DNA of 64,000 nucleotides from Candidatus Hydrogenedentota bacterium (GCA_016215105.1 JACRLJ010000022.1:3407-67406); one strand, 5' to 3'. Positions 4,093-32,256 are shown, counted from the stretch's first letter. Numbers and translations are program-made. The notes: generated by a model from the sequence alone, not told the origin.

Positions 4093-4545
4093 CTAGCACG
4101 ACGTTCGGTTATGCGCCATCCAGTATTGGCCAACGGTTTCCACAACGGTCTGAAAGTCGGGATAGCTCAGGGGCTTTATGATGTAGCTGTTTGCGCCGCA
4201 GCGATAGCTCTTTGAAATATCGCCGGCGGATTGGGAATCCGTGAATATGACCACGGGCGTGAGTGTAAGGGCGTCTTGCGGCTCGATGGACCGTATTTGG
4301 CCGAGTACAGAAAACCCGTCCGCTCCCGGCAGCGCCAAGTCCAGTAGGATCAGTCTGGGGGGATCCTCCCCAGCACGATCCGTCCACGCTTTGCGACTAA
4401 AAAGGAAGTCGAGCGCCTCTGTCCCGTCCTTAACAGCGATAACCAGTACGTCGGGTATGGCCTTTTGCAGCGTGTGTACGATTGATGCGCGCTGGCTGTC
4501 GTTATCTTCCACGACGAGGATGTCTACCGGCTCAAGTTGTGTCAC
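4093..4545 (-). CDS. Single-domain response regulator (receiver only)
   Basis: DILVVEDNDSQ ... LILLDLALPGADGF ... PVVIFTDS ... ANSYIIKP: acidic pocket, phospho-Asp and conserved Lys context. No output domain. Confidence 0.9.
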   Translation of the reverse strand: MTQLEPVDILVVEDNDSQRASIVHTLQKAIPDVLVIAVKDGTEALDFLFSRKAWTDRAGEDPPRLILLDLALPGADGFSVLGQIRSIEPQDALTLTPVVIFTDSQSAGDISKSYRCGANSYIIKPLSYPDFQTVVETVGQYWMAHNRTSC

Positions 4546-9176: not shown

Positions 9177-9177
9177 C

Positions 9178-10134: not shown

Positions 10135-10226
10135 CATGACCGATCCCGATCTAGCGGGCCATGAATTGTACGCCGGGATCTACAAAAGAAGGTGGAAGCC
10201 TGAGTTCATGACGCAGGGCCAGTTTC

Positions 10227-11417
10227 ATGGTTGATTCATCCGGCATTCACAACGCCAAAATCCTGATCGTTGATGATCTGGAAGCCAACGTCCGCCTGCT
10301 CGAGCGCACGCTACGCGGGGCCGGCTATGCTTCCGTCGTGTCCACGATGGACCCGTACGAGGTCTGTGAGCTCCACCGAAAGAACTGCTACGACTTAATC
10401 CTGCTGGATCTGCAGATGCCAGGCATGGATGGATTTCAGGTAATGGAAGGCCTCAAAGAAATTGAGACCGGTGGCTATCTCCCTGTTCTCGTGGTCACGG
10501 CTCAGCCGGGTCACAAGCTGCGCGCGCTGCAAGCCGGCGCGAAGGATTTCGTCAGCAAACCGTTTGATCTGGTCGAGGTCCAGGCGCGCGTCTACAACAT
10601 GCTCGAAGTGCGCCTGTTGCACACGGAAACGAAGAACCACGCCAAAGTGCTGGAGCAGACGCTGCGGGAGGTTGAGGAAAGCCGTGAGCTGATCCGCCTC
10701 CAGAACTGCGAGCTCAAGGGCCTCTACGATGACATCGTAATTGAGCAGAAGCTGTCAGAGAGACTCCTGCTCAACGTACTGCCCCGCGCTATTGCCGAGC
10801 GCCTGAAAGGGCGCCGCGAGGACATTGGTGACAGCTTTCCGGAGATTATTGCGGATAGCTTTCCGGAGGTGACCGTATTGTTCGCCGATATCGTTGGGTT
10901 TACGAAGTTTTCCACCGGTGTAAGTCCTGAGCGGCTCGTAGTTCTCCTTAATGAGATTTTCTCTGATTTTGACACCATCGCGGATACCCGTGGCCTCGAA
11001 AAAATAAAGAGTATTGGCGATGCCTACATGGCCGCCGCTGGACTGCCCGCACCCGTGGACGATCACGCGGCGCGGGCTGCACACATGGCGCTGGATATGC
11101 TTGACGCGCTGGACTGCTTTAATAAGCGTAGCGGCTACCGGTTACAAATTCGCATCGGCATCAACAGTGGCGCGGTGGTGGCGGGCGTCATTGGCAAACG
11201 GAAGTTCATATACGACTTGTGGGGCGCTACGGTGAACACCGCCAGCCGAATGGAATCCCATGGCGTTGCAGGACGTGTGCAAATCTCTCAGGCCACCCGG
11301 TCGCGCCTCGGCGACCCCTTCCTGTTCGAGGATCGTGGCGCCATCGACGTCAAGGATATCGGCGAACTCCGAACTTGGTTCCTGACCGGCAGGGCGCAAC
11401 GCGCCGTGGCCATGTGA
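10227..11417 (+). CDS. Response regulator with class III adenylate/guanylate cyclase output
   Basis: The receiver is nearly identical to that of 9178..10134. Cyclase motifs: VTVLFADIVGFT, KSIGDAYMAAAG, IRIGINSGAVVAGVIG, YDLWGATVNTASRMES. Confidence 0.95.
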   Translation: MVDSSGIHNAKILIVDDLEANVRLLERTLRGAGYASVVSTMDPYEVCELHRKNCYDLILLDLQMPGMDGFQVMEGLKEIETGGYLPVLVVTAQPGHKLRALQAGAKDFVSKPFDLVEVQARVYNMLEVRLLHTETKNHAKVLEQTLREVEESRELIRLQNCELKGLYDDIVIEQKLSERLLLNVLPRAIAERLKGRREDIGDSFPEIIADSFPEVTVLFADIVGFTKFSTGVSPERLVVLLNEIFSDFDTIADTRGLEKIKSIGDAYMAAAGLPAPVDDHAARAAHMALDMLDALDCFNKRSGYRLQIRIGINSGAVVAGVIGKRKFIYDLWGATVNTASRMESHGVAGRVQISQATRSRLGDPFLFEDRGAIDVKDIGELRTWFLTGRAQRAVAM

Positions 11418-14430: not shown

Positions 14431-14623
14431 CCTTTCTTCCGTCACCAGGAGTCCGCTGTTCGAGAATGTCGTGGCCGCATTCTTCCGCAGCTTCATATCA
14501 CAACAGTACCTGTCCGAGGTGAAGTTCTGGCAAACGGCGGGTGAAGCTTTGCTACTGGCCTTACAGCGCGTGTGCCCGGTGAGAGAAGCAGGCAAAGTCG
14601 TGGTCGTGCATGCACTTGGAGGG

Positions 14624-14667
14624 GTTTACCAGAAATTTACGCGCTCTTTACCCCCGGATTACGCTCA
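14624..14667 (+). promoter_or_regulatory. Phased 11-bp direct-repeat array (4 units) upstream of radical SAM gene
   Basis: Units at 14624, 14635, 14646, 14657: GTTTAC, ATTTAC, CTTTAC, GATTAC. -10-like TAAATG at 14674..14679. Confidence 0.65.
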
Positions 14668-14779: not shown

Positions 14780-16876
14780 ATGAAGCGCTTGCATGTGGTG
14801 TTTATCCGTCCGTCGCGCTATGACGACGAGGGTTACGTAGTACGCTTTGCGCGCGGCGTGTTGCCGTCAAACACCCTGTGTTGTCTCGAGAGCTTGACCG
14901 AGCGGGTGGCGGAACGCCGCGATCTCGGTCCGGACGTACAAGTAACCGTGGACGTGTTTGACGACACGGTGCAGAGGATACCCGTCCACCGTATCGCGAA
15001 ACTCAGCCGTAGGACGGACACTACCGTTGTCGTGGGCTTTGTGGGTGTTCAGAGCAACCAGTTTATGCGCGCGTCGGACCTCGCCCTGGAACTGCGCGAG
15101 CACGGTGTACAGGTCATGATCGGCGGGTTCCACGTCAGCGGCGTATTGACGCTGTTTGAAAAGCCTTCCTATGAACTCCAGCGGCTGCTGGACCACGGGG
15201 TGACGCTGGTGAAGGGCGAAGTGGAAGCGGAGGGCGTCATGGCCATGCTGCTCGGCGATGCCATCAATCGAGCCATGAAGCCCATCTACAACATCACGGA
15301 GTGGCCGGATCTGGCGGCGGCGCCCGTGCCGCGCGCCAGCAAGAAACTGCAGGGCCGTTACGTCGGGAAACAAATGGCGACGATTGACACCAGCCGAGGC
15401 TGCCCGTTTAATTGCTCGTTCTGCACCATTATCAACGTTCAAGGCCGGAGGATGCGCTATCGCTCATCCGCCTTGGTGCTGAAGGCCATTGAAGAGAACT
15501 ACGCGCATGGGGTTCGCTTCTACTTCTTCACGGACGATAACTTTTCACGGAACCCCGTTTGGAATGAAATCTTCGAAGGACTGATCGCGCTGCGGAATCG
15601 GGGTATCAAGGTCCAATTCATGATGCAGACCGACACTCAGGCGCATCGCATCCCGAACTTCGTGGAGAAAGCGGCCGAAGCAGGATGCTACCTCGCCTTC
15701 ATTGGCATGGAGAGTGTGAACCCGGAAAATCTCAAGGCCGTCGGTAAACGGCAAAACCACACGCACGAGTATGTGCAAATGGTGGAGAACTGGCACAACC
15801 ACGGTATCCTGGTGCATGTAGGCTATATCATCGGCTTGCCGTTCGACTCACAAGAGTCCGTCCGCCACGACATGGACTACCTGCGCAACCAAATCAAAGT
15901 GGATCTGGCGTCCTTGTTCATGTTGACGCCTCTTCCGGGCTCCCGTGACCACTGGCAGATGATTCAGGACCACGTCCCCGTCGATGGAGACTATAACGAG
16001 TACGACGGGCTTCACGAGACCTTCCGCCACGAGCTCATGCCAAACGGCGCCTGGCGCGCCGCCTATGACGAGGCCATGAACATCCTCTACAGTAAAGAGA
16101 ACATCATTGCCGCGCTGTTGCGCACCACGCCCCAGCGCTATTGGGAAATTCTTGGATTCTCGATCTGGTACCGCTACAGCGCGTTGATAGGCGCGCACCC
16201 GATGGCGACTGGCATCTTCCGCCTCAAGGATCGGCGTTCCCGGCGCCCGATCTTCCCGCGCGAAAACGTACTTCAGTATGGTTGGCGCCGCATGAAGGAC
16301 TCGTACCACGGCCTCATGACCTATCTCGGCCTCTTCTTCGAGTTCCAGGAGGTCTGGATGCTCACTCGAAAGCCGAGCGATCCACGCTGGGCCACCCTCG
16401 CCGACCTGCGCGAAAGATGGTCCGGCGTTCAGCGGCGTATTGCGGAGTACGACCTGCAAGGGCGTTATGCCGACGCCGCCCAGGAACTCAAAGTGATGCT
16501 GTCAAGCACTGCGGATCGACTGCGCCAGTTGAGCCGGGCAAGCGGCCATGTCAGCTTTTTCGTCCGGCGCAATCTGCAAAAGAAGGCTGCGGAAGTGGAG
16601 AGCTATCTGAGAACCTTCGATGTCCAAATGCCGGGCTGGAATCATGTCGCCGATGCCGAGCGCTTTGTCAGCCAGACCGTCATTGCCGGCTACGAAGAGA
16701 TCGCAATCCGCTATGTGGCGAAGCGCCGCCAATTCAACGCCTTTCGCCGAGATTCATTCGAGCGGATCAAGGCAGGGCGGCTGCTGAGTGTTAACCTGCT
16801 TCGAGTCCCGTATGCGATGGTGTGTGAGATCTTCTTCGCCTCTCGATTTGCCATGCATTTCCTTGCCCGCATCTGA
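14780..16876 (+). CDS. B12-binding-domain radical SAM protein with long C-terminal extension
   Basis: The N-terminus MKRLHVVFIRPSRYDDEGYVV...VVGFVGVQSNQ resembles a B12-binding Rossmann-like domain. Cys triad DTSRGCPFNCSFCT. About 230 further residues follow with no recognised family. Confidence 0.9.
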   Translation: MKRLHVVFIRPSRYDDEGYVVRFARGVLPSNTLCCLESLTERVAERRDLGPDVQVTVDVFDDTVQRIPVHRIAKLSRRTDTTVVVGFVGVQSNQFMRASDLALELREHGVQVMIGGFHVSGVLTLFEKPSYELQRLLDHGVTLVKGEVEAEGVMAMLLGDAINRAMKPIYNITEWPDLAAAPVPRASKKLQGRYVGKQMATIDTSRGCPFNCSFCTIINVQGRRMRYRSSALVLKAIEENYAHGVRFYFFTDDNFSRNPVWNEIFEGLIALRNRGIKVQFMMQTDTQAHRIPNFVEKAAEAGCYLAFIGMESVNPENLKAVGKRQNHTHEYVQMVENWHNHGILVHVGYIIGLPFDSQESVRHDMDYLRNQIKVDLASLFMLTPLPGSRDHWQMIQDHVPVDGDYNEYDGLHETFRHELMPNGAWRAAYDEAMNILYSKENIIAALLRTTPQRYWEILGFSIWYRYSALIGAHPMATGIFRLKDRRSRRPIFPRENVLQYGWRRMKDSYHGLMTYLGLFFEFQEVWMLTRKPSDPRWATLADLRERWSGVQRRIAEYDLQGRYADAAQELKVMLSSTADRLRQLSRASGHVSFFVRRNLQKKAAEVESYLRTFDVQMPGWNHVADAERFVSQTVIAGYEEIAIRYVAKRRQFNAFRRDSFERIKAGRLLSVNLLRVPYAMVCEIFFASRFAMHFLARI

Positions 16877-16959: not shown

Positions 16960-17931
16960 ATGAAATCGTATCTGACAATTGCGCGCGCGCGCTTGACACG
17001 CCATCACGTGACAGGTTTGTTCGCGCTTGCCGCGGCTTGTGCCCTGCTTTTCACCGGGCAAGTTGAGAGCGCCGAACCCGCAAACGGCGCGGATACTGCC
17101 GCCGGCGCGCCCGGCGCCAAAGGCGGCGCCGTTGCCGGGAGTAGCAGCGGCCCAACCGTATTGTTGAGCTTTCGCGAAGAGGTGTTTGTGAAGAATCCCA
17201 TTTCGTCCTTCATGTATTTTGTTCCGCTGATATCTCCGACTTCCGTCGACAGGCAAACCAGCGCCAACAACGACGTCGAGGTCGCTGTCATCTCATATGG
17301 ACAGAAGATCGGCGCAAAATCCTTTCGTGTGGCTTGCGAGTTCGAAACACGCGGAAGGGGTTTTCAGAAGTACATATTCAATTCGGCGGGGATGATAGCG
17401 GCGCACACCGCTGACCTAAAGGAGAATGAGCCGCTGACAACTACGCTGGACTTCATCAACTTTGAGGGAGAAGGATTTATTCGCATCGAAGTTGAAGGAA
17501 CGATTAACGACTCCACCGAGACGGTTATGGAGGTGAACTTGCAGTTCAACGCGCGAGGGCGGAGAAGTCCAGTAACCATTGGTCTCTATGACATCAAGCC
17601 CAAGGACGGAAAGTACGAGTACGAGAATAGAACCAACGAGTGTGTGGCTCGGGTGAACACACTCGCATTCAAGAAGTGCGATACGACACCGAGGATGGGG
17701 GTAAGTGTCGCGTCGATCACTACGGCAGCCGCATCGGAGGGTTTCGTAGCCCGCTTCAAGGGGCTGATTGCGAATCTGCTGATAAGGCCACCGAAGATCG
17801 CCGAGCTCGGCAACGAGACAATGCTCGACTTTGGATATGCGATACTCAAGCAGAAGCCTGAGTTTACGTTCCCAAAAGCGAAGAATATTACGGAAGACAG
17901 AACCGTTACCATTCCCGCCCGCAATTCCTGA
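16960..17931 (+). CDS. Secreted hypothetical protein (323 aa)
   Basis: Signal-like N-terminus LFALAAACALLFTGQVESAEP. No family recognised. Lies 83 nt after the radical SAM gene, same strand. Confidence 0.55.
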   Translation: MKSYLTIARARLTRHHVTGLFALAAACALLFTGQVESAEPANGADTAAGAPGAKGGAVAGSSSGPTVLLSFREEVFVKNPISSFMYFVPLISPTSVDRQTSANNDVEVAVISYGQKIGAKSFRVACEFETRGRGFQKYIFNSAGMIAAHTADLKENEPLTTTLDFINFEGEGFIRIEVEGTINDSTETVMEVNLQFNARGRRSPVTIGLYDIKPKDGKYEYENRTNECVARVNTLAFKKCDTTPRMGVSVASITTAAASEGFVARFKGLIANLLIRPPKIAELGNETMLDFGYAILKQKPEFTFPKAKNITEDRTVTIPARNS

Positions 17932-18029
17932 CATGCTCAGCGCCATGGCCCGTCTGGTACTTCTTGCATGAACTGCGGAGGGCGCCGAGGCCAACCCAAC
18001 GGGTTTTCTGATCGCCACCGCTGGCACGG

Positions 18030-18068
18030 GCGCCGCGTCAAAAAGCCGACTCTCGGCCGGATTCCTAG
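18030..18068 (+). repeat. CTAG-bounded repeat, copy C (3-prime module only)
   Basis: GCGCCGCGTCAAAAAGCCGACTCTCGGCCGGATTCCTAG. Its terminal CTAG contains the TAG stop (minus strand, 18067..18065) of the OmpR-type regulator. Confidence 0.75.
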
Positions 18069-18790
18069 GCGGGGGTGTCCTCGAAACGGTAGCCGGTACC
18101 GCGCACGGTGATGATGAAGGACGGGGCGCTCGGGTCGTCCTCGATTTTCTTTCGGATGTGGCCGATATGGACATCAACGACTTTCGGAATGCTGCAACTC
18201 GAGTCCTTCCAGGCGAATTCAAGAAGCTTCTCGCGCGTGAACACATGTTCGGGACGCCGCGCGAGCGTGTAGAGCAGGTCGAACTCCACCCCGGTCAAGT
18301 CGATGGGTACATCGTCTTTCCAGACGCGCCGTTCACCCGGGTCCAATCGCAGGCGCCGGAAACTCAGCGTCTTGTCCGCCTGGACCACGTCCCTGGACCT
18401 GCGCAGAATCGCCTCGACTCGGGCGCCCAGTTCCTGCAGGTCGAACGGCTTGGAAACGTAGTCGTCCGCGCCTAGAGCTAGCGTCATTACTTTCACAGCC
18501 GAGATGTTCGTAGAACTCAGCATGAGAATAGGTACGCTGTCCGAATCGCGCAGTGTGCGAAGCACTTCGATCCCGTCTAGAGAACGTTCTTTCTTTGTTG
18601 TGATGTCCGGAAAGTTGATGTCGAGCACAACAAGGTCGAACGCCATGGACTTGGCGGCGGCCAGCGCGGAACGCCCATCCGCGGCAGTCGCCACCTCGTA
18701 GCCCAGCTTTTCGAGATGCGTCTGGACGGCCCGCAGCAGTTTGGAGTCGTCATCGACGATAAGGATCTTGCTTTTCAGAGGCTTTGTCAC
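18065..18790 (-). CDS. OmpR/PhoB-family response regulator (receiver plus winged helix)
   Basis: GTG start at 18790 with RBS AAGGA. ILIVDDDSKLL...VVLDINFPD...YVSKP. The C-terminus LTGVEFDLLYTLARRPEHVFTREKLLE...VDVHIGHIRKKIE...TVRGTGYRF is the OmpR-type trans_reg_C pattern. Confidence 0.9.
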   Translation of the reverse strand: MTKPLKSKILIVDDDSKLLRAVQTHLEKLGYEVATAADGRSALAAAKSMAFDLVVLDINFPDITTKKERSLDGIEVLRTLRDSDSVPILMLSSTNISAVKVMTLALGADDYVSKPFDLQELGARVEAILRRSRDVVQADKTLSFRRLRLDPGERRVWKDDVPIDLTGVEFDLLYTLARRPEHVFTREKLLEFAWKDSSCSIPKVVDVHIGHIRKKIEDDPSAPSFIITVRGTGYRFEDTPA

Positions 18791-18830
18791 GACCAAAAAT
18801 CCTTGTGGTAGCCCACGGTAACCCAAGCGG

Positions 18831-21080
18831 CTATTCGCCCAGGGTGAAGTAGAACGTCGCACCATGATCGGTCTGACCTTCGGCCCATATGCGGCCGCCG
18901 TGGCGCTCGACGATACGTTTGGCAAGCGCCAGGCCAACCCCCGATCCCTCGACGTCTTGAGATCGATGAAGCCGGTGAAACGCTAAGAACATCGATTCCG
19001 CGTGGCTCATGTCAAAACCCATGCCATTGTCGCGGACAAAGTAAATCGTCTCGCCGTCGAGCTGCGCGCATCCTACATGAATCTCCGCCCGCTCGCGCTG
19101 ACGCGTAAACTTCAAGGCATTCGCCAACACGTTCAAGTAGACTTGCTTCAGTAGCGCGCGATCCGCAATGCACGGAGGCAGCTCGTCAATCACGACCTCC
19201 ACGTCGCGGCCTTGACGTTCGTCCTGCAGTTCCTCCAGCGCTTCCTGCGCCAGCCGGCCTATATCAACACGCCGCTTCTTCATGGGTTCACGGCTTAATC
19301 GCGAGAACGCGAGCAGATCCTCGATGAGTTTGCCCATCTGGTGAGTGCTGTCCAGAATCATCCGAACTTTTTCCACCGCCCCGTGCGGGAGCTGGGCGCC
19401 GTGCTCCTGAAGCAGCAAGTGCGCGATCTTGTTCGTGAGCCGCAAGGGAGTTCGCAAGTCATGGGACACCGAATGACTGTACGAATCAAGCTCTTCGTTG
19501 ATTTCCTCCAGAGCGGCGCTATGCTGTTGGAGTACTTCGTTCAACTTCTGGACGCGCAGTTCGGTGTCCTTCTTTTCCGTTATATCAAGCAGCATGCTGA
19601 ACGATCGAACGGCCTTACCGCTGTCATCGCAATCAAATCCGCCGAGCGCCCATAGCCAATGTACGGTTCCGTCCGGCCAACGCGTTCTAAACTCGGTGCT
19701 GTATTCCCACCCCTCGCTCATAGCGGCGTGAAACGCCTCTTCGAGGGCCACCCGATCATCGGCGTGTACCCGGTTGATCCACGCTTCGTAGCTGGGTTTC
19801 ACGGAGCCAACTTCGTACCCGAACTCACGGTAGCACTCATCATTCCAAGTCATCTCGTTGTCGGGAATATTCCACTCCCAAGTTGCCATCTTCACCGCTT
19901 GCAGGGCCAGCCGCAGGCGTTCCTCGCTTCTGCGCAGCGTCTCGGATTTCTCGCGCAACAGTTCGTTGGCCTCAGCCATCTCCTCGCCTTGTTCATGCAG
20001 TTGTTCATTGGCGGATTGCAGTTGCTCATTGGCGGATTGCAGTTGCTCATTGGCGGATTGCAGATCACTAGTCTTTACGGACAGTTCAAGGGTCCGTTGC
20101 TCGACCAATTCCTCCAGATGATGGCGGTGTTCTTCCAGTTCCGCTTGGGCCTTCTTCCGCTCCGTAATATCGCGCGCGATTATGGAGATTCCATTCGTCT
20201 TGCCAGCCGCGTCCATCAACGGGGAAATCGTCAGTGCTACATGTATGGCTATTCCCGACTTGGTGATCTGGCTCGTCTCATAGCCTTTGATTTGCTGTCC
20301 AAGGCGCGTTTGCTCGGTGAACATTGCGACATCGGAGATGCGGTTGCGGGGCACGATGATGGAAATCGGCTGGCCAACCGCCTCTTCCGCGGAAAAGCCG
20401 TAGATGCGTTCAGCGGCGGCGTTCCAAGTCAAGATTGTGCCGTCGAGGGCATTGCTGATGATGGCGTCGCTGGACGTTTCAACGATCGATGCCAACCACA
20501 TGCGTGTCTTGGCCGCGTCAAACACCTCGGACAGGTTGGTGACGACAACGCAGAGCGCGTGTAGTCCTCCCACCTCGAATGCGGCGGCGGAGAGATTCGC
20601 GGGCATGGTCGTCCCGTCTGCGCGTGCCAGGCAAATGGTAATGATTCCGGATTCCGCGGCCACTTCACTTAGAAAAGCGCTCAGTCTCGGCGCGTCTTCT
20701 TGGGTTATAAAATCCGCAAGCGGTCTGCCCAGTATTCGCTCGCTCGTCATTCCTATGAACGTGACGAATCGGTTGTTACAGGATAGGATAGCGCCGTTAG
20801 CGCCAAGGGTCACGACGCCTTCGTTAAGGACATCCAGTATGACACGATAGGGGTAATCCGCCCCTTCCAGAGCAAAGACTCTTTCGCCATCCGGTCCGGA
20901 GACAACGAGCGCGTCGACCCCACCGCTTTGAATTGCCTGGATAGTGGCCTCGGCCTCCTCGAGGCGGGCGCGCAGTACTTCTATCTCGCGAAGCAAATCG
21001 CCGCTCTTCCTGGCTGCGGAAGTTGATCTGTCCGGCGCGGGGGAACTCGATTTGCCGGTCTTGGCCGTTGTCATACCCAT
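18831..21080 (-). CDS. Multi-PAS sensor histidine kinase
   Basis: Several PAS/PAC blocks; coiled coil with (SANEQLQ)x3; H-box YSHSVSHDLRTPL; HATPase LANALKFT...DNGMGF...GSGVGLA. Confidence 0.95.
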   Translation of the reverse strand: MGMTTAKTGKSSSPAPDRSTSAARKSGDLLREIEVLRARLEEAEATIQAIQSGGVDALVVSGPDGERVFALEGADYPYRVILDVLNEGVVTLGANGAILSCNNRFVTFIGMTSERILGRPLADFITQEDAPRLSAFLSEVAAESGIITICLARADGTTMPANLSAAAFEVGGLHALCVVVTNLSEVFDAAKTRMWLASIVETSSDAIISNALDGTILTWNAAAERIYGFSAEEAVGQPISIIVPRNRISDVAMFTEQTRLGQQIKGYETSQITKSGIAIHVALTISPLMDAAGKTNGISIIARDITERKKAQAELEEHRHHLEELVEQRTLELSVKTSDLQSANEQLQSANEQLQSANEQLHEQGEEMAEANELLREKSETLRRSEERLRLALQAVKMATWEWNIPDNEMTWNDECYREFGYEVGSVKPSYEAWINRVHADDRVALEEAFHAAMSEGWEYSTEFRTRWPDGTVHWLWALGGFDCDDSGKAVRSFSMLLDITEKKDTELRVQKLNEVLQQHSAALEEINEELDSYSHSVSHDLRTPLRLTNKIAHLLLQEHGAQLPHGAVEKVRMILDSTHQMGKLIEDLLAFSRLSREPMKKRRVDIGRLAQEALEELQDERQGRDVEVVIDELPPCIADRALLKQVYLNVLANALKFTRQRERAEIHVGCAQLDGETIYFVRDNGMGFDMSHAESMFLAFHRLHRSQDVEGSGVGLALAKRIVERHGGRIWAEGQTDHGATFYFTLGE
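20000..20062. repeat. 3 x 21-nt perfect/near-perfect tandem repeat inside the kinase CDS
   Basis: GTTG(T/C)TCATTGGCGGATTGCA x3, encoding the heptad SANEQLQ on the minus strand. Confidence 0.9.
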
Positions 21081-21092
21081 TTTGGCTGCACT

Positions 21093-21458
21093 CTATTTCT
21101 TCGGAACCAAGTCGAGACCGAGAAGCACACTATCCCGTTGAGAAAGGTCCCCGACCAAGCGGCGTAGTGGCAGCGGTAGTACTTTTACCAGCGTCGGCGT
21201 GGCCACGATTTGCTCGCCCTTCGCCAAGGACGGCTGCTTATAGACGTCAATGATCTCAACGTCATAGCGCCCATCTAGATACTCCGCGCATATGGATTTG
21301 ATATTCTGAATCGCACGAACCGAGTTGGGGGTTGCGCCCGTGACATACAAACGGAGCGAGTACCGGTCTTCGGGTGTTTTCTGCCAGTCCGGGGCCGCGC
21401 CTGCAATTGTCGTTTTCGGCTTGGCCTTTGTCACCTTCTTCTTGCCATTCGAGCGCAT
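21093..21458 (-). CDS. kaiB: KaiB (second copy) with basic N-terminal extension
   Basis: YSLRLYVTGATPNSVRAIQNIKSICAEYLDGRYDVEIIDVYKQPSLAKGEQIVATPTLVKVLPLPLRRLVGDLS is the KaiB thioredoxin-like core. It is preceded by the K-rich MRSNGKKKVTKAKPKTT. Confidence 0.9.
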   Translation of the reverse strand: MRSNGKKKVTKAKPKTTIAGAAPDWQKTPEDRYSLRLYVTGATPNSVRAIQNIKSICAEYLDGRYDVEIIDVYKQPSLAKGEQIVATPTLVKVLPLPLRRLVGDLSQRDSVLLGLDLVPKK

Positions 21459-21464
21459 CGATCT

Positions 21465-21845
21465 CTACTCCAGGCCCCGCGGACGCAATTGAAGTCCCAC
21501 GAGCACCTTGTCGGTGTCGGATAGGTGGCCGATGATTTTTCGGACGGGCTCGGGTAATCGGCGGACCAGGGTCGGTACGGCAACAATTTGATCGCCCTTG
21601 GCAAGCTGCGGGTTCTTGAGGAGGTCTATGACCTCGATATGATATTTCCCCGCCAAGTGCTCTTCACAGATACCCTTGAGATTCGCGAAGGCGGTCAGGG
21701 ATCGGGGCGTTTGGCCCGCCACGTAGAGGCGCAACTCCCAAAGCTCCGGGCTCCGATGCGTGTCCTCTCCGGAAGCTCTCTTGGACTTTGTTCGTGACTG
21801 TGTTTTGTTGCGTCCATCGGGTCCGTTCTTGGTCGCCTTTTTCAT
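21465..21845 (-). CDS. kaiB: KaiB (first copy) with basic N-terminal extension
   Basis: [74 protein letters not shown]. Overlaps the kaiC stop by 4 nt. Confidence 0.9.
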
Positions 21846-23587
21846 TTCCCGTCGTCCTTAACCGGGGTGAACCGTCTTGACCTTTCAGTTCGCGACTGAA
21901 CGAGCCGTGAGCGCTGTGCCTGCGCGTGTTTTTCACGTAATCCTTCCTGCTCGATATCCGTCATCACGGCATTTGCCTCGGCGTCAAATTCGGACTGAAG
22001 CGCTTTGAGACGCGCGAGCAAGGCGGTGTGCTTGTGGTCTAGGCTTCGGCGTCTGCTTTGGCGCGACTGCTCATTGGCAATGCCATTGGACTTTTCGCGC
22101 GCCTGAAGGGCCTCGCGAGAGGAACCGGTAACGATTCCGTCAGGTCCGATGGCGACCTTAATCAGTCTTGCGCCATGATTCGTCAGCACGAATTCGCGGA
22201 TTTGATTGGAATGGGGCATTCCACGCGATTTCAAAATATACAAGCTTCGGTTGCGTTCGCCAGCCTGTTCCAAGTTGCGCAACAGGAGCCAGGTATCGAT
22301 CAGGGAAGAGATTCCCACTTCCGCTGCGCCCGGCGTGGTGTCTTCTGAAATCAGGCTGGTGAAAACGGCGGTAATCTGCCGGGATTTCAGGAAATCCACT
22401 ATCCGCAGGAGCATCGTCTTGGCGTCACCATGCGAGCCTACGGCCTCAAAGTCGGTGATGGGGTCTATAACGACATTTCGAGGTCTGAACTGCTCGATCT
22501 CCTGGTGTACGGTGACCAAATGCATCTCGAGCCCCAGCAGTGTGGGGCGGGAGGCCTTGATTTGCAGCAGTCCCTTTTTCAGCCATTGCCCGAGGTCGAG
22601 TCCAATGGATCTCATATTGCGAAGAATTTGGCTTTCGGATTCCTCGAACGCCAGGAATGAGCAACGCTCGCCGCGGCGGCAGGCGGCATCCACAAAATGA
22701 GCCGCCATGCTCGTCTTGCCTGTGCCTGGCGTGCCGGTAATCAGGACGGTGCTCCCGCGGAAATATCCCTTTCCGCCCAGCATGGCGTCCAGCTCGGGAA
22801 TGCCGCTCGACAGCCGGGCGGATGTCGCCTGGTGCTCCAAACTTAGCCCGGTGACCGGTAGTACGGAGAACCCCTGCTTATCGATCAGGAAGGGGTACTC
22901 GTTGGTTCCATGGATCGTTCCCCGGTACTTGACCACGCGCATCCGGCGCGTCGCCATCTGGTCGATCACGCGGTGATCGAGCAGTATCACGCAATCCGAG
23001 ACATATTCCTCGAGACCTTGCCGAGTGAGTGTACTTACGCCGCGCTCCGCGGTGATGACGGCCGTAAGACCCTCATCCTTGAGCCAGCGAAACAGCCTGC
23101 GCAGTTCTCCGCGCAGGATGAAGTCGTTGGACAGGCCGGCAAAGAGAGCTTCAACGGTGTCCAGGACGATGCGTTTCGCGCCGATGGATTTGACGGCGTG
23201 CGCGATGCGTATGAAGAGCCCTTCCAAATCATACTCGCCCGATTCCAGAATCTCGCAGCGTTCCACGTGGACGTAGTCAATCGCCAGCTTCTTCTGCCGG
23301 GAGAGTTTGTCGAGATCAAACCCCAGAGATCGAACGTTCTTGGCCAGTTCGTCGGCGGTTTCCTCGAACGCGATGAAGACCCCCGGTTCGCCGAACTCGA
23401 CCGCGCCGCGGACGAGGAATTCGATGGCGAACAGCGTCTTCCCGCTGCCCGCGCCCCCGCATACCAGCGTCGGGCGGCCCCGGGGAATCCCGCCATTTGT
23501 AATTTCATCCAGGCCGGCAATTCCCGTAGGGGACTTGGCCAATCCATTACCTGAGCGCGTTTCCGTCTTCCGTTTCTTTCTCAACAT
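21842..23587 (-). CDS. kaiC: KaiC with ~60-aa C-terminal helical extension
   Basis: Two RecA-like halves with Walker A GGAGSGKT and [29 protein letters not shown] and [22 protein letters not shown]. The phospho-site region reads [12 protein letters not shown]. The tail is ...[41 protein letters not shown]... Confidence 0.95.
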
Positions 23588-23698
23588 GCTGGCGCCAAGC
23601 CCTCCGATTGTTCTTACTCCAAGCCGTCACTGACGAGTACCCAGAAAGAACTCTTTGGCGTTCATAGGTACACCTTGACTCAATCGAACCACTCCAAG

Positions 23699-23726
23699 AT
23701 GAAGTTTTGGTAAAGGGCGGGTAAAG
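23699..23726 (-). promoter_or_regulatory. Phased direct repeats (2 consensus units plus 1 weak) upstream of kaiC
   Basis: Plus-strand GGTAAAG at 23709..23715 and 23720..23726 gives minus-strand CTTTACC twice, 11 bp apart. A weaker CTTCAT is in phase. About 120-140 nt before the kaiC start. Confidence 0.5.
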
Positions 23727-23768
23727 ATTCACTATACAACGTTGGCGCCCGGAGAGTTCCGCCTACGA

Positions 23769-23878
23769 CTAGAGGCGTGGCCAGAAAGCCTCCGCACGAG
23801 CCAGCGCTGGTATTGAACAACTTACAGATGCTTTCTGGCCGCGCCGCGTCAAGAAGCCGGCTTTCCGGCCGGAAACCC
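23769..23878 (+). repeat. CTAG-bounded repeat, copy B (near full length, degenerate 3-prime end)
   Basis: CTAGAGGCGTGGCCAGAAAGCCTCCGCACGAGCCAGCGCTGGTATTGAACAACTTACAGATGCTTTCTGGCCGCGCCGCGTCAAGAAGCCGGCTTTCCGGCCGGAAACCC. Confidence 0.75.
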
Positions 23879-24084
23879 ACGTGAGGATTGGCGGGCGCCC
23901 GTACTATGGATTCGGCGATTCTCATGGCTCCTGGCAACGTCCTCAGATTACGCCCGCGATGGCCTGCCCCGTAGACGGTCCGTTCCGGTGTCCTACTCAG
24001 CAGTATACATCAATCCCCAGAGTATGGATACACCCTGATACTGCCCGCCTCACACCGCGAGTGAGCGTGGGCAGTGCCCGCGGG

Positions 24085-24128
24085 ATTTACCAAATTTTTA
24101 CCGGTCTTTTGCCGGGAAATTACGTAAC
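24085..24128 (+). promoter_or_regulatory. Phased 11-bp direct-repeat array (4 units) upstream of 24234
   Basis: Units at 24085, 24096, 24107, 24118: ATTTAC, TTTTAC, TTTTGC, AATTAC. Confidence 0.65.
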
Positions 24129-24233
24129 TCCGGCTCAATAGAGGCGTTGGCGCGGTCCAGGCCGGACGCAGGGGCCACAAGGATTCCATCGTGCGGCCAA
24201 ACGATCAATCGAAAAAGGAAAGGGTGGACACCG

Positions 24234-24785
24234 ATGAGAACAAACTGCATCGCTGCGATCATAGTACTGGCGGCCATTGTCCTGCCGACGGTCGTACTCG
24301 GTATAACGTCACCGAACGCGCAAGCAGACCAGCCCGGCGCGGCGCAAACGAACGCGCCAGCAGGTACCGCGCCGGTTAAGGCGCCGATGTCGGCCTGTCC
24401 CATGTGCTCTATGGCGGAAGGCGTGGCAACAAGCAAAGACATGCCTCCGGCCATGAAGCAGCACTGCGACATGATGATAAAAGCCGAACTGTCGAAGGAC
24501 GACGCGTCGTGCCTTCTTGCGCTCAAGCAGGAGCTGAAGCTCACGCCGGAGCAGGTTCAACAGCTCGACCAGATCCTCAAGGAGAGCAGGGAAAAGGCGG
24601 CCGCCCTGCTTACGCCCGAGCAGCAGAAATCCCTGGTGGAATGCACAGGGCAGCCGATGTCCATGAAGACAATGCACTCAAGAATGCACGGGACGACGAT
24701 GCAGAAGATGGATAGTCCCGCCAAGATGACACCGAAGGATAAGGAGGCGGAGAAGCCGGAAGGCGCCGCTTCGTCTGCTAAGTAA
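24234..24785 (+). CDS. Met-rich periplasmic protein with Spy/CpxP/ZraP-like LTPEQ helices
   Basis: Signal MRTNCIAAIIVLAAIVLPTVVLG. Met/Cys cluster MSACPMCSM...MPPAMKQHCDMM. LKLTPEQVQQLDQILKESREKAAALLTPEQQKSL. Confidence 0.6.
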   Translation: MRTNCIAAIIVLAAIVLPTVVLGITSPNAQADQPGAAQTNAPAGTAPVKAPMSACPMCSMAEGVATSKDMPPAMKQHCDMMIKAELSKDDASCLLALKQELKLTPEQVQQLDQILKESREKAAALLTPEQQKSLVECTGQPMSMKTMHSRMHGTTMQKMDSPAKMTPKDKEAEKPEGAASSAK

Positions 24786-25203: not shown

Positions 25204-25331
25204 GTGAACGAAACAGTTGAATTCAAGACATGAACTACACGCCGCGTTTCTAGAGTACGCCTAGAGTACGCCCGTGAATACAGGGTTTATCCCGGACAGG
25301 AAGGCCGATCCGCGCCCTCTTCCCGACCCAA

Positions 25332-25857: not shown

Positions 25858-26223
25858 ATGCACGAGCACGGGGAATCAGCCGATATGAGCGTCCGGTGTC
25901 TTGATGGAGTCAGGGATACGATCTATCGCGAAGAAGGTGTGGTCGCCACACGGTCAACGGCTGGATTCTGTATTCGAGTGCCTTACCCCGTTTCCTCGCA
26001 TCACCAATTTGGTATTGCCGGGGCACTGTGGGAAATTTGGGCCGCGATACGCGATCAAGTAGTGGATTCAGACCACGAGTGCATCGTGGATGTATCCGCG
26101 GTCGAGAACTTGCCGCTCCCGCTCATCTACGTCTTGGCGGCGATGGACGGCGATATGAATCAAGCCGGCCGCAAACTCATTTCCGTTGGCGCAAGACAGG
26201 GAGACCATCAGCGGTACACATGA
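25858..26223 (+). CDS. Hypothetical protein, weakly STAS/anti-sigma-antagonist-like
   Basis: IVDVSAVENLPLPLIYVLAAMDGDMNQAGRKLISVGAR resembles the STAS C-terminal pattern. This is a weak call. Confidence 0.3.
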   Translation: MHEHGESADMSVRCLDGVRDTIYREEGVVATRSTAGFCIRVPYPVSSHHQFGIAGALWEIWAAIRDQVVDSDHECIVDVSAVENLPLPLIYVLAAMDGDMNQAGRKLISVGARQGDHQRYT

Positions 26224-26290
26224 GAACTCCGGTGGCGGATGCGCGTGGCGAAACATCCGCGTCAACACAAAGAACGAAAGGATACGCAAC

Positions 26291-29005
26291 ATGTTTACAC
26301 GAAAAGCGCTGAGAGTGGGAGCGTCTGTCTTGGGATGTGCAGCATTGATTGTCGCCTTGGGCGGATGTCCGCGCGCGAGCGCGCCCACCGTGAGTTCCAC
26401 CGACCCCGCGAGTGGCGCGATCGGCGTACCGGTCAACAGGAACCTTGCCGTAACCTTCAGTGAGGCGATGAACCCTGCAACGATCACCCCAACGACATTC
26501 ACGTTGACGCAAGGAACAACGCCCGTACCAGGCACAGTGACCTACTCGGGCGTGACCGCGATCTTTAATCCCACCAACACCCTGGAGTCCAATACGCAGT
26601 ATACGGCCACGATTACCACCGGGGCCCAGGCCCAGCGTCGAATGTGCAAGGGTGACGAGGGTATTGCGCTCTTCCTCGTGGGCTTTCTACTTGCAGGACA
26701 TGCAAGTCAGGCACGAGCGGATAGCGCATTGGCAGAGAACTTTGTGTGGACCTTTACCACGGGTGAGTCCACAGACACCACGGCGCCGGCCGTCAGTTCC
26801 ACCGATCCCGCAAACGGAGCCACTGGCGTGCCGCCCGGCAGAAACCTCTCCGCCACTTTCAGCAAGGCAATGAACCCTCTGACGATTACCACTGCAACAT
26901 TCACCTTGAGGCACGGGACGACGCCCGTTGCAGGCACAGTGAGCTATGCGGGCATCACTGCGGTCTTTAACCCCACAGGATCGCTGCCCTCTAGTACCTT
27001 GTATACGGCCACAATTACGAGCGGAGCCACCGACCTGGCTGGGAATGCGCTGGCCAGTGATCACGTGTGGACCTTCACCACCGGCGCTTCTGCAGACACC
27101 ACAGCGCCCACCGTGAGTTCCACCAACCCTGTGAATGGCGCGATAGGTGTGCCGGTCAATATGAAGATCGCCGCTGCCTTCAGCGAGGCGATGGACCCAT
27201 TGACGATCAGCACGGCAACTTTTACCGTGATGCAAGGAACAACGCGCGTCGCGGGTACGGTGACCTATGCGGGCGTGACCGCGATCTTTACACCCACAGG
27301 CGGTCTGGCGTCCGGGACCCAATATACCGCCAGGATTACGAGCGCGGCAGAGGACTTGGCTGGGAACGCACTGACAGGTGGCCACGTGTGGACCTTTACC
27401 ACAGGCGGCGGCGCCGACACCACGGCGCCGGCGGTAAGTTCCACCGACCCTGCGAATAGCGCCACAGGCGTGCCTATCAATAAGAACCTCTCCGCTACCT
27501 TCAGTGAAGCGATGGCCCCCTTGACGATCTCCACCGCAACATTCACCTTGGAACAAGGGACGACGCCCGTCACTGGCACGGTGACCTACGCAGGAGTTAC
27601 CGCGGTCTTTAATCCCGCGAGCCCTCTCGCGGCCGACACTGAATACACCGCCACGATTACGAATGAGGCCGATGACCTCGCTGGAAACGCACTGGCGAGT
27701 GAACACGTGTGGAGCTTTACCACCGGAACCACCGCAGACACCACGGCGCCCACCGTGAACTCTACCGATCCCGCGGGTGGCGCGATAGACGTGTCCGTCA
27801 ACAAGAAGATCGCCGCCACCTTCAACGAGGCGATGAATCCCCTGACAATCACCACGACAACATTCACCCTGAAACACGGGACGACACCCGTTGCTGGCGC
27901 GGTCGGCTATGCAGGCGTTACCGCGACCTTCACACCCGCAACAACTCTGGCGCCCAACACGACCTATACGGCCACTGTTTTGATGGAAGCGACGGACGTG
28001 GCTGGGAACGGGCTGGCCGGTGACCATGTATGGACCTTCACCACCGGCGCCACGGCTGACGCCACCGCTCCCACAGTGAGTTCCGCCGATCCTATAGATA
28101 GCGCGATAGGCGTTCCGCTCAATAAGAAGGTCGCCGCCACCTTCAGCGAGGCGATGGACCCCTTGACCATTACCACGGCAACGTTCACCTTGGAGCAAGG
28201 GACGACGCCCGTTGCAGGCGCGGTAACCTATATGGGCATGACCGCGACCTTTACGCCGGCTGCCGCGTTGACAGCAGGTACAGAATATACCGCCACGATT
28301 ACGACCGGCGCCGAGGACCTGGCGGGGAACGCAGTCGCAAGTGACCACGTGTGGACCTTCACCACGGGAACAACGACGGCTCAAGTGGAGATAGACTTGG
28401 GATCGGCGAACGCGTTCGCGATACTGGCGGGCTCCACGGTCACCAACACTGGTCCTAGTATAGTCACCGGAGATCTGGGCGTGAGCCCTGGTACCGCCGT
28501 GGTGGGATTTCCGCCCGGAATACTGAACGGGGCTATATTCACAGGCGTTGCTTCCGCTGCTGGCCAAGCCAAACTCGACTTGACCGCCGCCTTTAACGAC
28601 GCCGCCGGACGCTCCGTAGGTCCGGTCTCCTTGCCGGGAGATCTAAGCGGGCTAACCCTATACCCTGGTCTCTACACTAACTCGACCTCGGTCATGCTAT
28701 CGGCTGGGAACGTCACTCTCGACGCGCAGGGTGACTCCAATGCGGTCTTTCTCTTCCAGATGGGTTCCACGCTCACCACGGGGGTTGGTACCCAAGTGGT
28801 CCTGAGCGGTGGCGCCAAGGCTGCCAACGTCTACTGGCAGGTTGGCGCGTCGGCGACGCTGGGAACGAATTCTATCTTCAAGGGAAACATACTGGCCAGC
28901 GCGTCAGTCACGTTGACTACCGGAACCGCGCTGGAAGGCAGAGCGCTGACACAGACTGCCGCGGTTACATTGGACGATTCCGCTATCACAGTTCCTGCCC
29001 CGTAA
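26291..29005 (+). CDS. Lipoprotein with six Ig-like (SbsA/Big_5-type) repeats and C-terminal ice-binding-like DUF3494 domain
   Basis: Lipobox VLGCAALIVALGGC. Six ~105-aa units. The C-terminal IDLGSANAFAILAGSTVTNTGPSIVTGDLGVSPGTAVVGFPPG matches the DUF3494 N-terminal signature. Confidence 0.9.
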   Translation: MFTRKALRVGASVLGCAALIVALGGCPRASAPTVSSTDPASGAIGVPVNRNLAVTFSEAMNPATITPTTFTLTQGTTPVPGTVTYSGVTAIFNPTNTLESNTQYTATITTGAQAQRRMCKGDEGIALFLVGFLLAGHASQARADSALAENFVWTFTTGESTDTTAPAVSSTDPANGATGVPPGRNLSATFSKAMNPLTITTATFTLRHGTTPVAGTVSYAGITAVFNPTGSLPSSTLYTATITSGATDLAGNALASDHVWTFTTGASADTTAPTVSSTNPVNGAIGVPVNMKIAAAFSEAMDPLTISTATFTVMQGTTRVAGTVTYAGVTAIFTPTGGLASGTQYTARITSAAEDLAGNALTGGHVWTFTTGGGADTTAPAVSSTDPANSATGVPINKNLSATFSEAMAPLTISTATFTLEQGTTPVTGTVTYAGVTAVFNPASPLAADTEYTATITNEADDLAGNALASEHVWSFTTGTTADTTAPTVNSTDPAGGAIDVSVNKKIAATFNEAMNPLTITTTTFTLKHGTTPVAGAVGYAGVTATFTPATTLAPNTTYTATVLMEATDVAGNGLAGDHVWTFTTGATADATAPTVSSADPIDSAIGVPLNKKVAATFSEAMDPLTITTATFTLEQGTTPVAGAVTYMGMTATFTPAAALTAGTEYTATITTGAEDLAGNAVASDHVWTFTTGTTTAQVEIDLGSANAFAILAGSTVTNTGPSIVTGDLGVSPGTAVVGFPPGILNGAIFTGVASAAGQAKLDLTAAFNDAAGRSVGPVSLPGDLSGLTLYPGLYTNSTSVMLSAGNVTLDAQGDSNAVFLFQMGSTLTTGVGTQVVLSGGAKAANVYWQVGASATLGTNSIFKGNILASASVTLTTGTALEGRALTQTAAVTLDDSAITVPAP
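26381..28379 (+). repeat. Six tandem ~315-nt coding repeats
   Basis: Each unit reads TAP.VSSTDP..GA.GVP.N....ATFSEAM.PLTI.TATFTL..GTTPVAGTVTYAGVTA.F.P...L...T.YTATIT..A.DLAGNALA.DHVWTFTTG. Unit 1 carries an extra in-frame ~28-aa insert. Confidence 0.9.
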
Positions 29006-29496: not shown

Positions 29497-29541
29497 GTTT
29501 AGTCAAAGCTTTACCAGTACTTTGCCCGAAATTTGTGTGCG
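29497..29541 (+). promoter_or_regulatory. Phased direct-repeat array (3-4 units) upstream of PEP-CTERM gene
   Basis: GTTTAG at 29497 (12-bp step), then CTTTAC at 29509, CTTTGC at 29520 and ATTTGT at 29531. -10-like TGAAAT at 29547..29552. Confidence 0.6.
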
Positions 29542-32212: not shown

Positions 32213-32256
32213 GTTTACTAAGGCTTTACGAGTTCTTTGCCCGGCGTCTACGTTAG
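32213..32256 (+). promoter_or_regulatory. Phased 11-bp direct-repeat array (4 units) upstream of the CsbD/DUF883 run
   Basis: Units at 32213, 32224, 32235, 32246: GTTTAC, CTTTAC, CTTTGC, GTCTAC. -10-like TTAATG at 32263..32268. Confidence 0.65.

Follow-up and report, generated by a model that had tools for sequence, protein, structure and literature searches.

A 64-kb stretch of DNA of a Candidatus Hydrogenedentota bacterium (GCA_016215105.1, JACRLJ010000022.1:3407-67406; hereafter the window, from whose first nucleotide (nt) all coordinates are counted) carries a cluster of five genes, all located on the minus strand, which encode KaiC, two KaiB proteins, a PAS histidine kinase and a response regulator of the OmpR/PhoB family. 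This locus raises the questions of what kind of Kai system it specifies, whether the pair of KaiB proteins is peculiar to this genome, and how the state of such a system could be passed on to gene expression. The sequence suggests that kaiC, the two kaiB genes, the kinase gene and the regulator gene probably constitute a five-gene operon of a KaiA-independent KaiC/KaiB system resembling that of Rhodobacter. By analogy with the solved Rhodobacter sphaeroides proteins, it is likely that this system is a KaiC2-type timer (an "hourglass" reading the energy state) equipped with its own kinase and regulator.

KaiC and the architecture of the kai cluster

The KaiC protein is clearly an ordinary member of the KaiC2 (Rhodobacter) type, as judged from its sequence. 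It matches the Pfam family PF06745 twice (E 5.6e-111) and contains two Walker A motifs, GGAGSGKT (residues 44-51) and GTPGTGKT (285-292), as well as catalytic Glu pairs within the motifs FEET and FEES. The score obtained with the NCBIfam model NF006799 (716) exceeds its cutoff (408), while that obtained with TIGR02655, the equivalog model of cyanobacterial KaiC1, does not (344 vs 546 bits). Among solved proteins, the window KaiC is most closely related to the R. sphaeroides KaiC dodecamer (KaiC_RS; PDB 8DBA; E 8e-194, residues 14-568 aligned with 3-556), which provides the group placement that the first-pass annotation of this DNA had left to phylogeny. Thousands of KaiC proteins of the same type, 575-600 amino acids (aa) in length, are encoded by Planctomycetota, Acidobacteriota, Bacteroidota, Binatia, Eisenbacteria and other bacteria. 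The phosphosite GISSLIDT (Ser427/Ser428) aligns with S413/S414 of KaiC_RS and is invariant in 30 homologues.

The alignment with KaiC of Synechococcus elongatus (519 aa) stops near residue 490, and the approximately 65 extra residues form a C-terminal tail. This tail (residues ~490-568) can be aligned without gaps with the KaiC_RS tail of 8DBA and of the 8FWI sequence. In the 30 homologues it displays two conserved registers: (i) large hydrophobic residues at positions 516, 523, 527, 530, 534, 541, 545 and 562, and (ii) near-invariant Ala residues at positions 522, 525, 529 and 536. Only one Gly (549) is present within residues 503-568. Fourier analysis of the hydrophobicity of the tail revealed peaks at periods of ~6.6 and 2.3 (near 7 and 7/3) and none at 3.5, and the proximity of these peaks to heptad periods is suggestive only. 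In R. sphaeroides two hexamers are held together by the tail, a coiled coil that substitutes for KaiA; this coiled coil packs via Ala/Arg in one phospho-state and via Leu/Ile in the other (PMC10076222), and the two registers conserved here match this packing switch. The alignment therefore argues that the tail is a homologue of the solved KaiC_RS coiled coil, a relationship that had been proposed at first pass.

The first-pass annotation had correctly recorded both Walker A motifs, the Ser-Ser pair and the extended tail. Its view that the tail, the Ser-Ser site and the downstream PAS kinase set this locus apart did not hold: these are traits of the whole KaiC2 clade (PMC10076222; R. sphaeroides locus). 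A tail longer by ~50 residues and a Ser-Ser pair mark a large kaiC2 clade and permit KaiA-independent phosphorylation (PMC10076222), so that neither of these family traits is new.

The window system shares with the KaiBC hourglass of R. sphaeroides KD131 (PMC10076222; 8DBA, 8FWI, 8FWJ) the KaiC2 type, the Ser-Ser pair, the tail and the lack of KaiA, and with its locus on plasmid pRSKD131A the order kaiC-kaiB-kinase, a kinase with the same N-terminal module and a KaiB of the alpha type (both described below). The R. sphaeroides locus differs in encoding one KaiB of 89 aa, with four residues before strand beta-1 (i.e. no tail), and an HWE kinase, and no response regulator is annotated within ~5 kb downstream of its kaiC. 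The window encodes an additional KaiB (KaiB-beta), KaiB tails of 34-37 residues, a HisKA-type kinase with three PAS domains and an OmpR regulator, and the two KaiC proteins share ~53% identity.

A double-domain KaiC, a KaiB and a histidine kinase paired with an OmpR-family regulator are also components of the cyanobacterial KaiABC and SasA/CikA-RpaA system. However, no KaiA was found in the window, KaiC, the kinase and the regulator scored below the cutoffs of TIGR02655, NF006800 (SasA) and the RpaB model, respectively, and the phosphosite is Ser-Ser instead of Ser-Thr, with Ala422 at the position of Thr426. The KaiC2-KaiB2 pair of Synechocystis sp. PCC 6803 belongs to the same KaiC subgroup as the window protein, and the survey of Schmelling et al. 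2017 (PMC5520375) reports that KaiB2 and KaiC2 co-occur widely outside cyanobacteria.

The stop codon of kaiC and the ATG of the first kaiB share the sequence ATGA (a 4-nt overlap). The following gaps are 6 nt (between the kaiB genes), 12 nt (second kaiB to kinase) and 40 nt (kinase to regulator), and both this spacing and the common orientation of the five genes agree with the first-pass description. The regulator gene starts with GTG, preceded by AAGGA 9 nt upstream; the start of the longest open reading frame (ORF), at 18937, would overlap the kinase gene. The hairpin with a T-run located 5 nt past the regulator stop codon (Table 1) is the sole terminator-like site found on the minus strand across 17900-24200 and is likely to be the end of the operon. 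Scans for sigma-70 promoter and terminator consensus sequences within the operon yielded promoter-like matches at chance level. The overlap, the short gaps, the single terminator-like site and the chance-level internal promoters fit one transcription unit, which is how we interpret the kai cluster. The sequence TTCGAT/TATGAA upstream of kaiC is a putative promoter read from the sequence and not a mapped start. Among eight related contigs (L001-L003, L065 and L164-L167), this element is also kept in L165 and L167, which have the same five-gene order; L164 and L166 show this order with a single kaiB.

A Pfam scan of 35 ORFs of the window, which left some small ORFs outside, gave no match to the KaiA family (including the C-terminal domain of KaiA and KaiA3), in line with the earlier statement that kaiA is absent from the window. 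Homology as well as Pfam and NCBIfam domains thus bear out the first-pass description of a Rhodobacter-type KaiBC module that lacks KaiA and adjoins a two-component pair.

Table 1. Features of the kai cluster, its output components and the CTTTACC arrays of the window.
Feature	Coordinates	Strand	Characteristics
kaiC, KaiC2/Rhodobacter type	21842..23587	-	581 aa; CI and CII ATPase domains
kaiB-alpha (copy 1, first position)	21465..21845	-	126 aa; Pfam KaiB, E 1.7e-26
kaiB-beta (copy 2, second position)	21093..21458	-	121 aa; Pfam KaiB, E 3.7e-27
PAS histidine kinase	18831..21080	-	749 aa; Pfam PAS (three), HisKA, HATPase_c
Kai-associated N-terminal module of the kinase	20526..21005	-	residues 26-185; helix motif and PAS fold
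(SANEQLQ)x3 tandem repeat, PAS2-PAS3 linker	19996..20063	-	Tandem Repeats Finder: period 21, 3.2 copies, 97% matches
OmpR/PhoB-family response regulator	18065..18790	-	241 aa; Pfam Response_reg, Trans_reg_C
Terminator-like hairpin and T-run	18046..18060	-	5 nt past regulator stop codon
Putative kaiC core promoter	23661..23688	-	-35-like TTCGAT (23688-23683), -10-like TATGAA (23666-23661), 16-nt spacer
kaiC array (CTTTACC, CTTTACC, CTTCATC)	23698..23726	-	units 23720-23726, 23709-23715, 23698-23704; toward kaiC, 111-139 nt before ATG
Second array (ATTTACC, TTTTACC, TTTTGCC)	24085..24113	+	same intergenic region; toward divergent gene ~24234-24785, rubrerythrin gene behind
Nine further arrays (second array included)	688-716(-), 4623-4651(-), 4800-4817(+), 5141-5169(+), 14518-14546(-), 14624-14663(+), 24085-24113(+), 29509-29526(+), 32213-32241(+)		3-4 units each
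Single-domain receiver	4093..4545	-	150 aa; Pfam Response_reg; orthologue of receivers of L001-L003 and L065

The two KaiB proteins and their N-terminal tails

The distribution of the kaiB pair was examined in a sample comprised of 80 loci from species-representative (GTDB) genomes, collected via a KaiC alignment, and seven contigs of close relatives. The locus counts refer to the first 83 loci (L001-L083) and the window; the six-frame ORFs of these loci were scanned with the window proteins. Two kaiB genes follow kaiC in 52 of the 83 loci, distributed over many phyla, and one in 29, while a kinase-like gene comes next in 73. In a neighbour-joining tree of the KaiB core, all 50 usable second-position copies were placed in one clade, and none of the 52 first-position copies fell inside it. 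We designated the first- and second-position types alpha and beta, respectively. The order kaiC-kaiB-kaiB is the commonest layout, and the tree suggests that alpha and beta are ancient, widespread paralogues kept in a fixed order. The first-pass annotation had singled out the KaiB pair as the least expected element of the locus, which must be revised, because this is the majority layout, the proteins form two ancient clades and their tails are normal.

The two types are distinguished by signatures around strand beta-1. The alpha proteins carry a W at position -2 together with VAG (W-E-LRLYVAG in copy 1 of the window), and the beta proteins an invariant Tyr, Y-[VI]-LRLYVTGxTPxS (Y-S-LRLYVTG in copy 2). 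In many beta members a short F-E-x-A-L-like motif is located 10-14 residues upstream of this Tyr; in the window lineage it reads DW[QE]KTP (DWQKTP in the window itself). Could the second kaiB be a redundant, recent duplicate, and the N-terminal extensions mis-called starts? The copies are adjacent and 52% identical, and several relatives have lost one of them. Nevertheless, this explanation is hardly credible: a recent local duplication is rejected by the second-position clade, which excludes all first-position copies, and by the clade-specific signatures, and the mean identity of the two KaiB proteins within a locus is only 50%. The starts speak against it as well. Copy 1 possesses no ATG, GTG or TTG between its start ATG and strand beta-1, and the sole alternative start of copy 2 still leaves 26 residues before this strand. 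Independent gene callers assign 105-140 aa to most of hundreds of KaiB homologues. The extensions noted at first pass on both proteins are consequently not start-codon artefacts.

Both window proteins exceeded the cutoff of Pfam PF07689 (92 and 94 bits vs 27). With NCBIfam NF006798 they scored 102.9 and 106.1, just under the cutoff of 110, and they also remained below that of TIGR02654; they should thus be termed KaiB family proteins and not equivalog KaiB. The best PDB match of the window KaiB-alpha is 8FWJ_M, and a profile of the alpha clade identified KaiB_RS (8FWJ) as the clear best solved match (135.6 bits, vs 121.7 for the next). The profile of the beta clade found no solved member specific to that clade in the PDB. 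The two-KaiB layout is also present in the RefSeq annotation of a cultured Pararhizobium. Adjacent KaiB paralogues and short basic tails were nowhere described in the literature searched, a weak negative given that subscription journals were mostly outside the search. Surveys of the type of PMC5520375 class KaiB by the best match to Synechocystis KaiB1, KaiB2 or KaiB3, and the portions of their text that were searched do not describe two adjacent paralogues or short basic tails.

A single KaiB may be of either type. Alpha is the sole KaiB in Rhodobacter and in many Acidobacteriota and Burkholderiales, and the single KaiB of the cyanobacterial KaiC2-type locus L082 belongs to the beta clade. 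Of the eight contigs related to the window, L001, L165 and L167 retain both proteins. In L003, a 49-aa ORF (2490-2639) corresponds to KaiB-alpha without its middle 77 residues, and in L164 (9749-10162) and L002 (9749-10177) a single KaiB of 137-142 aa consists of an alpha tail (~24 residues) joined to a beta protein. L166 and L065 encode one KaiB each, that of L065 being in the beta clade. Alpha is thus the copy that gets lost in the window lineage. As either paralogue can be the only KaiB, their core functions probably overlap, and loci that retain both may divide the labour to some extent.

The basic N-terminal tail comprises 37 residues in KaiB-alpha and 34 in KaiB-beta. In sets of ~77 homologues per clade, the segment preceding beta-1 has a median length of 27 (alpha) and 32.5 (beta) residues, is rich in Lys, Ala and Arg and carries a median net charge of +3; these sets are skewed to relatives of the window, and the loci derived from genomes span the same range. 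AlphaFold2 models built from clade-specific alignments gave a predicted local distance difference test score (pLDDT) below 50 for residues 1-32 of KaiB-alpha and 1-30 of KaiB-beta, and no secondary structure within residues 1-30. Short basic tails of 20-35 residues are a real and common property of these KaiB proteins, and are predicted to be disordered. Added N-terminal segments on a KaiB core are also present in the elongated KaiB proteins of Nostocales and Oscillatoriophycideae, as reported in PMC5520375. However, those extensions are ~150 aa long, conserved, restricted to cyanobacteria and carried by KaiB1-type proteins, whereas tails of the window type are short (20-35 aa), basic, of low complexity and variable in sequence, with predicted disorder.

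A further reading of the pair, which we regard as improbable, is that alpha and beta are not interchangeable and represent a "split SasA": alpha would drive the dephosphorylation of KaiC, as in Rhodobacter, and beta would be a free-standing adaptor between KaiC and the kinase, in the state preceding the fusion that gave the cyanobacterial output kinase. The beta gene adjoins the kinase gene, and KaiB-beta is closer than KaiB-alpha to cyanobacterial KaiB and to the N-terminal domain of SasA. The set kaiC-kaiB(alpha)-kaiB(beta)-kinase, with the Kai-specific N-terminal PAS module in its kinase, would then be an ancestral, complete unit of timer plus output, and the basic tails might tune binding or the kinetics of fold switching. 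AlphaFold2 modelling of each KaiB, at low confidence, gave the same ground-state-like order of elements and no distinction in preference for the fold-switched state. 

The alpha/beta pair is conserved, yet only alpha has been studied. Rhodobacter, the only KaiA-less Kai timer understood at the atomic level, has one short KaiB, and if the two KaiB proteins do different jobs, the "primordial hourglass" model would describe a reduced version of a common system.

The Kai-associated kinase module and the candidate phospho-acceptors

The kinase is comprised, in this order, of an N-terminal coiled coil with a PAS domain, PAS2, a helical linker, PAS3, HisKA and HATPase_c. The SasA model NF006800 matched residues 504-747 only (133 bits vs a cutoff of 342), with no KaiB-like (thioredoxin-fold) domain. 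Together with Pfam and the sequence itself, this upholds the first-pass description of a kinase with PAS domains and a threefold SANEQLQ repeat, lacking the SasA N-domain. The linker between PAS2 and PAS3, in which the repeat is located, is 28 residues (four heptads) longer in the window than in most relatives, and that of L001 differs by 14 residues, indicating that linker length changes in whole heptads. The SANEQLQ triplet is thus a lengthening of this linker specific to the window.

Comparison of the kinases encoded downstream of kaiB revealed that residues ~26-175 are common to 80-100% of them, and the catalytic core, at the same threshold, to about half. The conserved region begins with the helix motif LRxRLEEAEETLxAIRxGEVDALVV, which is followed by a PAS fold. 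This module is present at the very N-terminus of 71 of the 73 kinase-like ORFs located directly after kaiB, and in two of the 31 other kinase-like ORFs of the same loci, both of which belong to kai clusters. It was found in none of 59 control kinases from 80 unrelated loci anchored on OmpR regulators. It is also contained in the HWE kinase of R. sphaeroides (E 8e-30) and in a Pararhizobium protein annotated as a "response regulator" (E 2e-53). Searches of Pfam and PDB with the module returned generic PAS similarity only (the best being the PAS region of DosP) and nothing for the helix. A Kai-specific kinase module was not described in the literature searched, again a weak negative, with subscription journals mostly outside the search.

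The novelty lies in one N-terminal coiled-coil/PAS module being common to the kinases downstream of kaiB. Since the output domains vary while this module is constant, its association with kai genes points to it as the part that may sense KaiB/KaiC. It offers a testable handle on the route by which the state of KaiBC systems outside cyanobacteria reaches gene expression.

The regulator encoded by the last gene matches PF00072 (92 bits) and PF00486 (84 bits), and its motifs DDD, LVVLD, LMLSS and SKPF correspond to the acidic pocket, the phospho-acceptor Asp, the Thr/Ser and the Lys, respectively. An insertion of ~7 residues after this Asp (DINFPDITTKKERSLDG) is common to the window protein and its orthologues of L164-L167 (71-76% identity), which are encoded at the same position, after the kinase. 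The protein is not an orthologue of RpaA or RpaB: it scored 193 with the RpaB model NF045944 (cutoff 330), and no RpaA model occurred in the best 25 of 102 NCBIfam matches. A metagenome scan with the regulator returned, among the matches listed, only generic OmpR relatives of at most 43% identity, with no kai genes nearby; its orthologues came to light through the loci of KaiC relatives. The regulator is the sole winged-helix response regulator detected in the window.

Receiver domains outside the operon occur in a GGDEF protein, an adenylate cyclase, a hybrid kinase and a 150-aa single-domain protein. The latter retains the acidic pocket, Asp, Thr and Lys, and carries a C-terminal TVGQYW motif. 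In a phmmer search it matched the receivers of L001-L003, and those only, with 168-235 bits. Its gene is located ~17 kb from the kai operon, beside a gene for a WXXGXW-repeat protein (2149-3873), and a similar receiver-WXXGXW pair occurs in L167. In L001-L003 and L065 the 150-aa receiver is encoded directly upstream of kaiC, and no OmpR regulator was found in the sequence retrieved (at most 8 kb per flank); L164-L167 and the window have no receiver upstream of kaiC and possess instead the OmpR-family regulator after the kinase. The 150-aa receiver may serve the Kai kinase as a second phospho-acceptor.

Some minor observations concern these receivers. In L065, a Hydrogenedentota metagenome-assembled genome, the receiver upstream of kaiC (~450-900) is split over two reading frames, by a frameshift or an assembly error. 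The region 6240-11417 (+) of the window encodes a 978-aa hybrid PAS kinase, followed by the receiver-GGDEF and the receiver-adenylate/guanylate cyclase proteins. Within the hybrid kinase, PAS regions have been duplicated very recently, giving tandem repeats of 426 and 393 nt with 83-86% matches. L164 and L166 likewise have a receiver-cyclase gene and a large multi-PAS gene close to their kai operon.

CTTTACC arrays and the proposed circuit

The first-pass annotation had drawn attention to two consensus CTTTACC units upstream of kaiC. Both are exact and belong to statistically real, promoter-proximal arrays (Table 1). In the window CTTTACC occurs exactly 12 times (3.8 expected), and phased pairs of units (CTTTACC, 4 nt, CTTTACC; up to 3 mismatches) occur 24 times (2.5 expected); neither count was reached in any of 100 shuffled sequences. 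The phased pairs form ten arrays of 3-4 units. We rejected the possibility that this excess is only a coding artefact, as the phased triplets are close to promoters and, where checked, are located outside annotated genes. Three exact CTTTACC sequences are located inside the Big_5 repeat gene (26752, 27394 and 27715), where they are part of T-F-T codons.

In five of the ten arrays, a -10-like hexamer (TATGAA, CTAAAT, CTCAAT or CTTAAT) follows ~20-21 nt after the last unit, the same geometry as in PhoB/OmpR sites that take the place of the -35 sequence. Like pho-box-like PhoB/OmpR promoters, the arrays are direct repeats in helical-turn phase ending ~20 nt before the -10-like hexamer; they differ in their CTTTACC unit, repeated 3-4 times at 11 bp, and at kaiC the array is displaced upstream by one more turn (to 31 nt) and a -35-like hexamer is present in addition. 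The proteins encoded behind the arrays include KaiC, the 150-aa receiver (array 4623-4651), a radical-SAM protein, a secreted protein whose gene precedes that of rubrerythrin, small secreted or membrane proteins and CsbD-like proteins. The spacer 5' of the kai cluster contains an array in all nine loci of the lineage (the window and its eight relatives), and the array at 24085-24113 is conserved in L164-L167. The other 79 GTDB-derived loci showed no array at the listing threshold (84 sequences and four relatives were scanned). This Hydrogenedentota-like lineage alone has the OmpR regulator and the CTTTACC arrays, and the arrays look like a single regulon specific to it.

The binding sites of OmpR/PhoB regulators are direct repeats with a spacing of about one helical turn. 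The regulator of the operon is the best candidate for the array-binding protein, with a roughly even chance of being so. The rival explanation, in which the arrays serve a different regulator encoded elsewhere and the OmpR protein has other targets, with no autoregulatory loop, is a real possibility, although we lean against it. L001-L003 and L065 carry arrays of this consensus 5' of their kai cluster, with no OmpR regulator found in the sequence retrieved, and this makes the link between regulator and arrays circumstantial. In L164-L167, which do encode the regulator, no array faces kaiC; both points limit the autoregulation suggested at first pass. In addition, arrays precede the unlinked 150-aa receiver gene and many unrelated genes. 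On the other hand, the flanks of these relatives are short and the regulator may lie elsewhere in their genomes, the window contains ten arrays and a single winged-helix response regulator, 11-bp direct repeats overlapping the -35 region are classic OmpR/PhoB geometry, and both arrays and regulator are limited to the same narrow lineage.

We infer each protein-protein contact, the phosphotransfer, the array-binding protein and the time-keeping in the following scheme. KaiC hexamers would pair via the C-terminal coiled coil, free the A-loop region and autophosphorylate Ser427/Ser428 without KaiA. KaiB would bind the CI ring of phosphorylated KaiC and speed ATP hydrolysis and dephosphorylation when the ATP:ADP ratio falls, with two paralogues bearing basic tails of predicted disorder on hand for this step. 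The kinase would read the state of the KaiC/KaiB complex via its Kai-specific N-terminal module and phosphorylate the co-transcribed OmpR-family regulator, and possibly also the unlinked 150-aa receiver. The regulator would most likely act at promoters with three CTTTACC units, namely those of its own operon and of the CsbD, rubrerythrin and small secreted protein genes. The window lineage is thereby a candidate for an end-to-end circuit (timer, kinase, OmpR regulator and promoter motif) in a non-phototrophic candidate phylum.

Several observations weigh against this scheme: (i) the KaiC tail shares only 24% identity with that of KaiC_RS, the hydrophobic positions being kept, (ii) the AlphaFold2 models of the KaiB proteins have an overall pLDDT of 56-60, a low confidence that supports little beyond the disordered tail, (iii) L164-L167 have the regulator, yet no array points at kaiC there, the spacer array facing the divergent gene, and (iv) the arrays of L001-L003 and L065 are unaccompanied by a detected OmpR regulator, as mentioned above. 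Furthermore, some KaiBC systems of non-phototrophs, such as that of Legionella, reportedly serve stress resistance, with no timing demonstrated.

The last point leads to an alternative in which the same proteins act as a stress or energy-state switch with no useful delay or hourglass. The genes linked to arrays are of stress type (two CsbD-like proteins, rubrerythrin and small secreted proteins), the organism is not a known phototroph, its closest named relatives (74-76% identity) being metagenome-assembled genomes of Candidatus Hydrogenedentota, and non-circadian functions have been proposed for the Synechocystis KaiC2-KaiB2 pair; a non-circadian role is also said to have been shown for Legionella KaiBC. 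We nonetheless consider this alternative rather unlikely. The nearest relative with a solved structure is the R. sphaeroides hourglass, all of whose mechanistic hallmarks are kept, and light-dark information may reach the cell through the BLUF protein and the CarH-like MerR/B12 regulator encoded in the window. The two readings are, moreover, compatible, as an hourglass driven by the ATP:ADP ratio is a metabolic switch as well.

The BLUF gene (42290-42724, -), the gene for the CarH-like MerR protein with B12-binding domains (43339-44283, +) and a SOUL haem-binding protein gene (44306-45028, +) are located ~20 kb from the kai operon. The BLUF and CarH-like MerR/B12 families are known light sensors, and these three genes suggest a possible light input in a lineage not known as phototrophic.

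The long spacer divergent from kaiC (23740-24080) contains G+C-rich inverted repeats (e.g. ggtttccggccggaaagccggc), with no gene-like ORF and no Rfam match; a scan of the whole window with Rfam gave nothing at gathering scores. Tandem repeats of period 11 at 25250-25272 (CTAGAGTACGC, 2.1 copies) and 35067-35095 (AGCCAAGAAGT, 2.7 copies) are unrelated in sequence to the CTTTACC units. The radical-SAM protein encoded behind one of the arrays (14780-16876, +) comprises 698 aa. A 939-aa secreted protein (26186-29005, +) contains six Big_5 immunoglobulin-like repeats and a C-terminal ice-binding-like domain, and the gene for its homologue adjoins kaiC in L166. Finally, the region 35379-37334 (+) encodes a transporter of the AI-2E family fused to a B12-binding-like domain.

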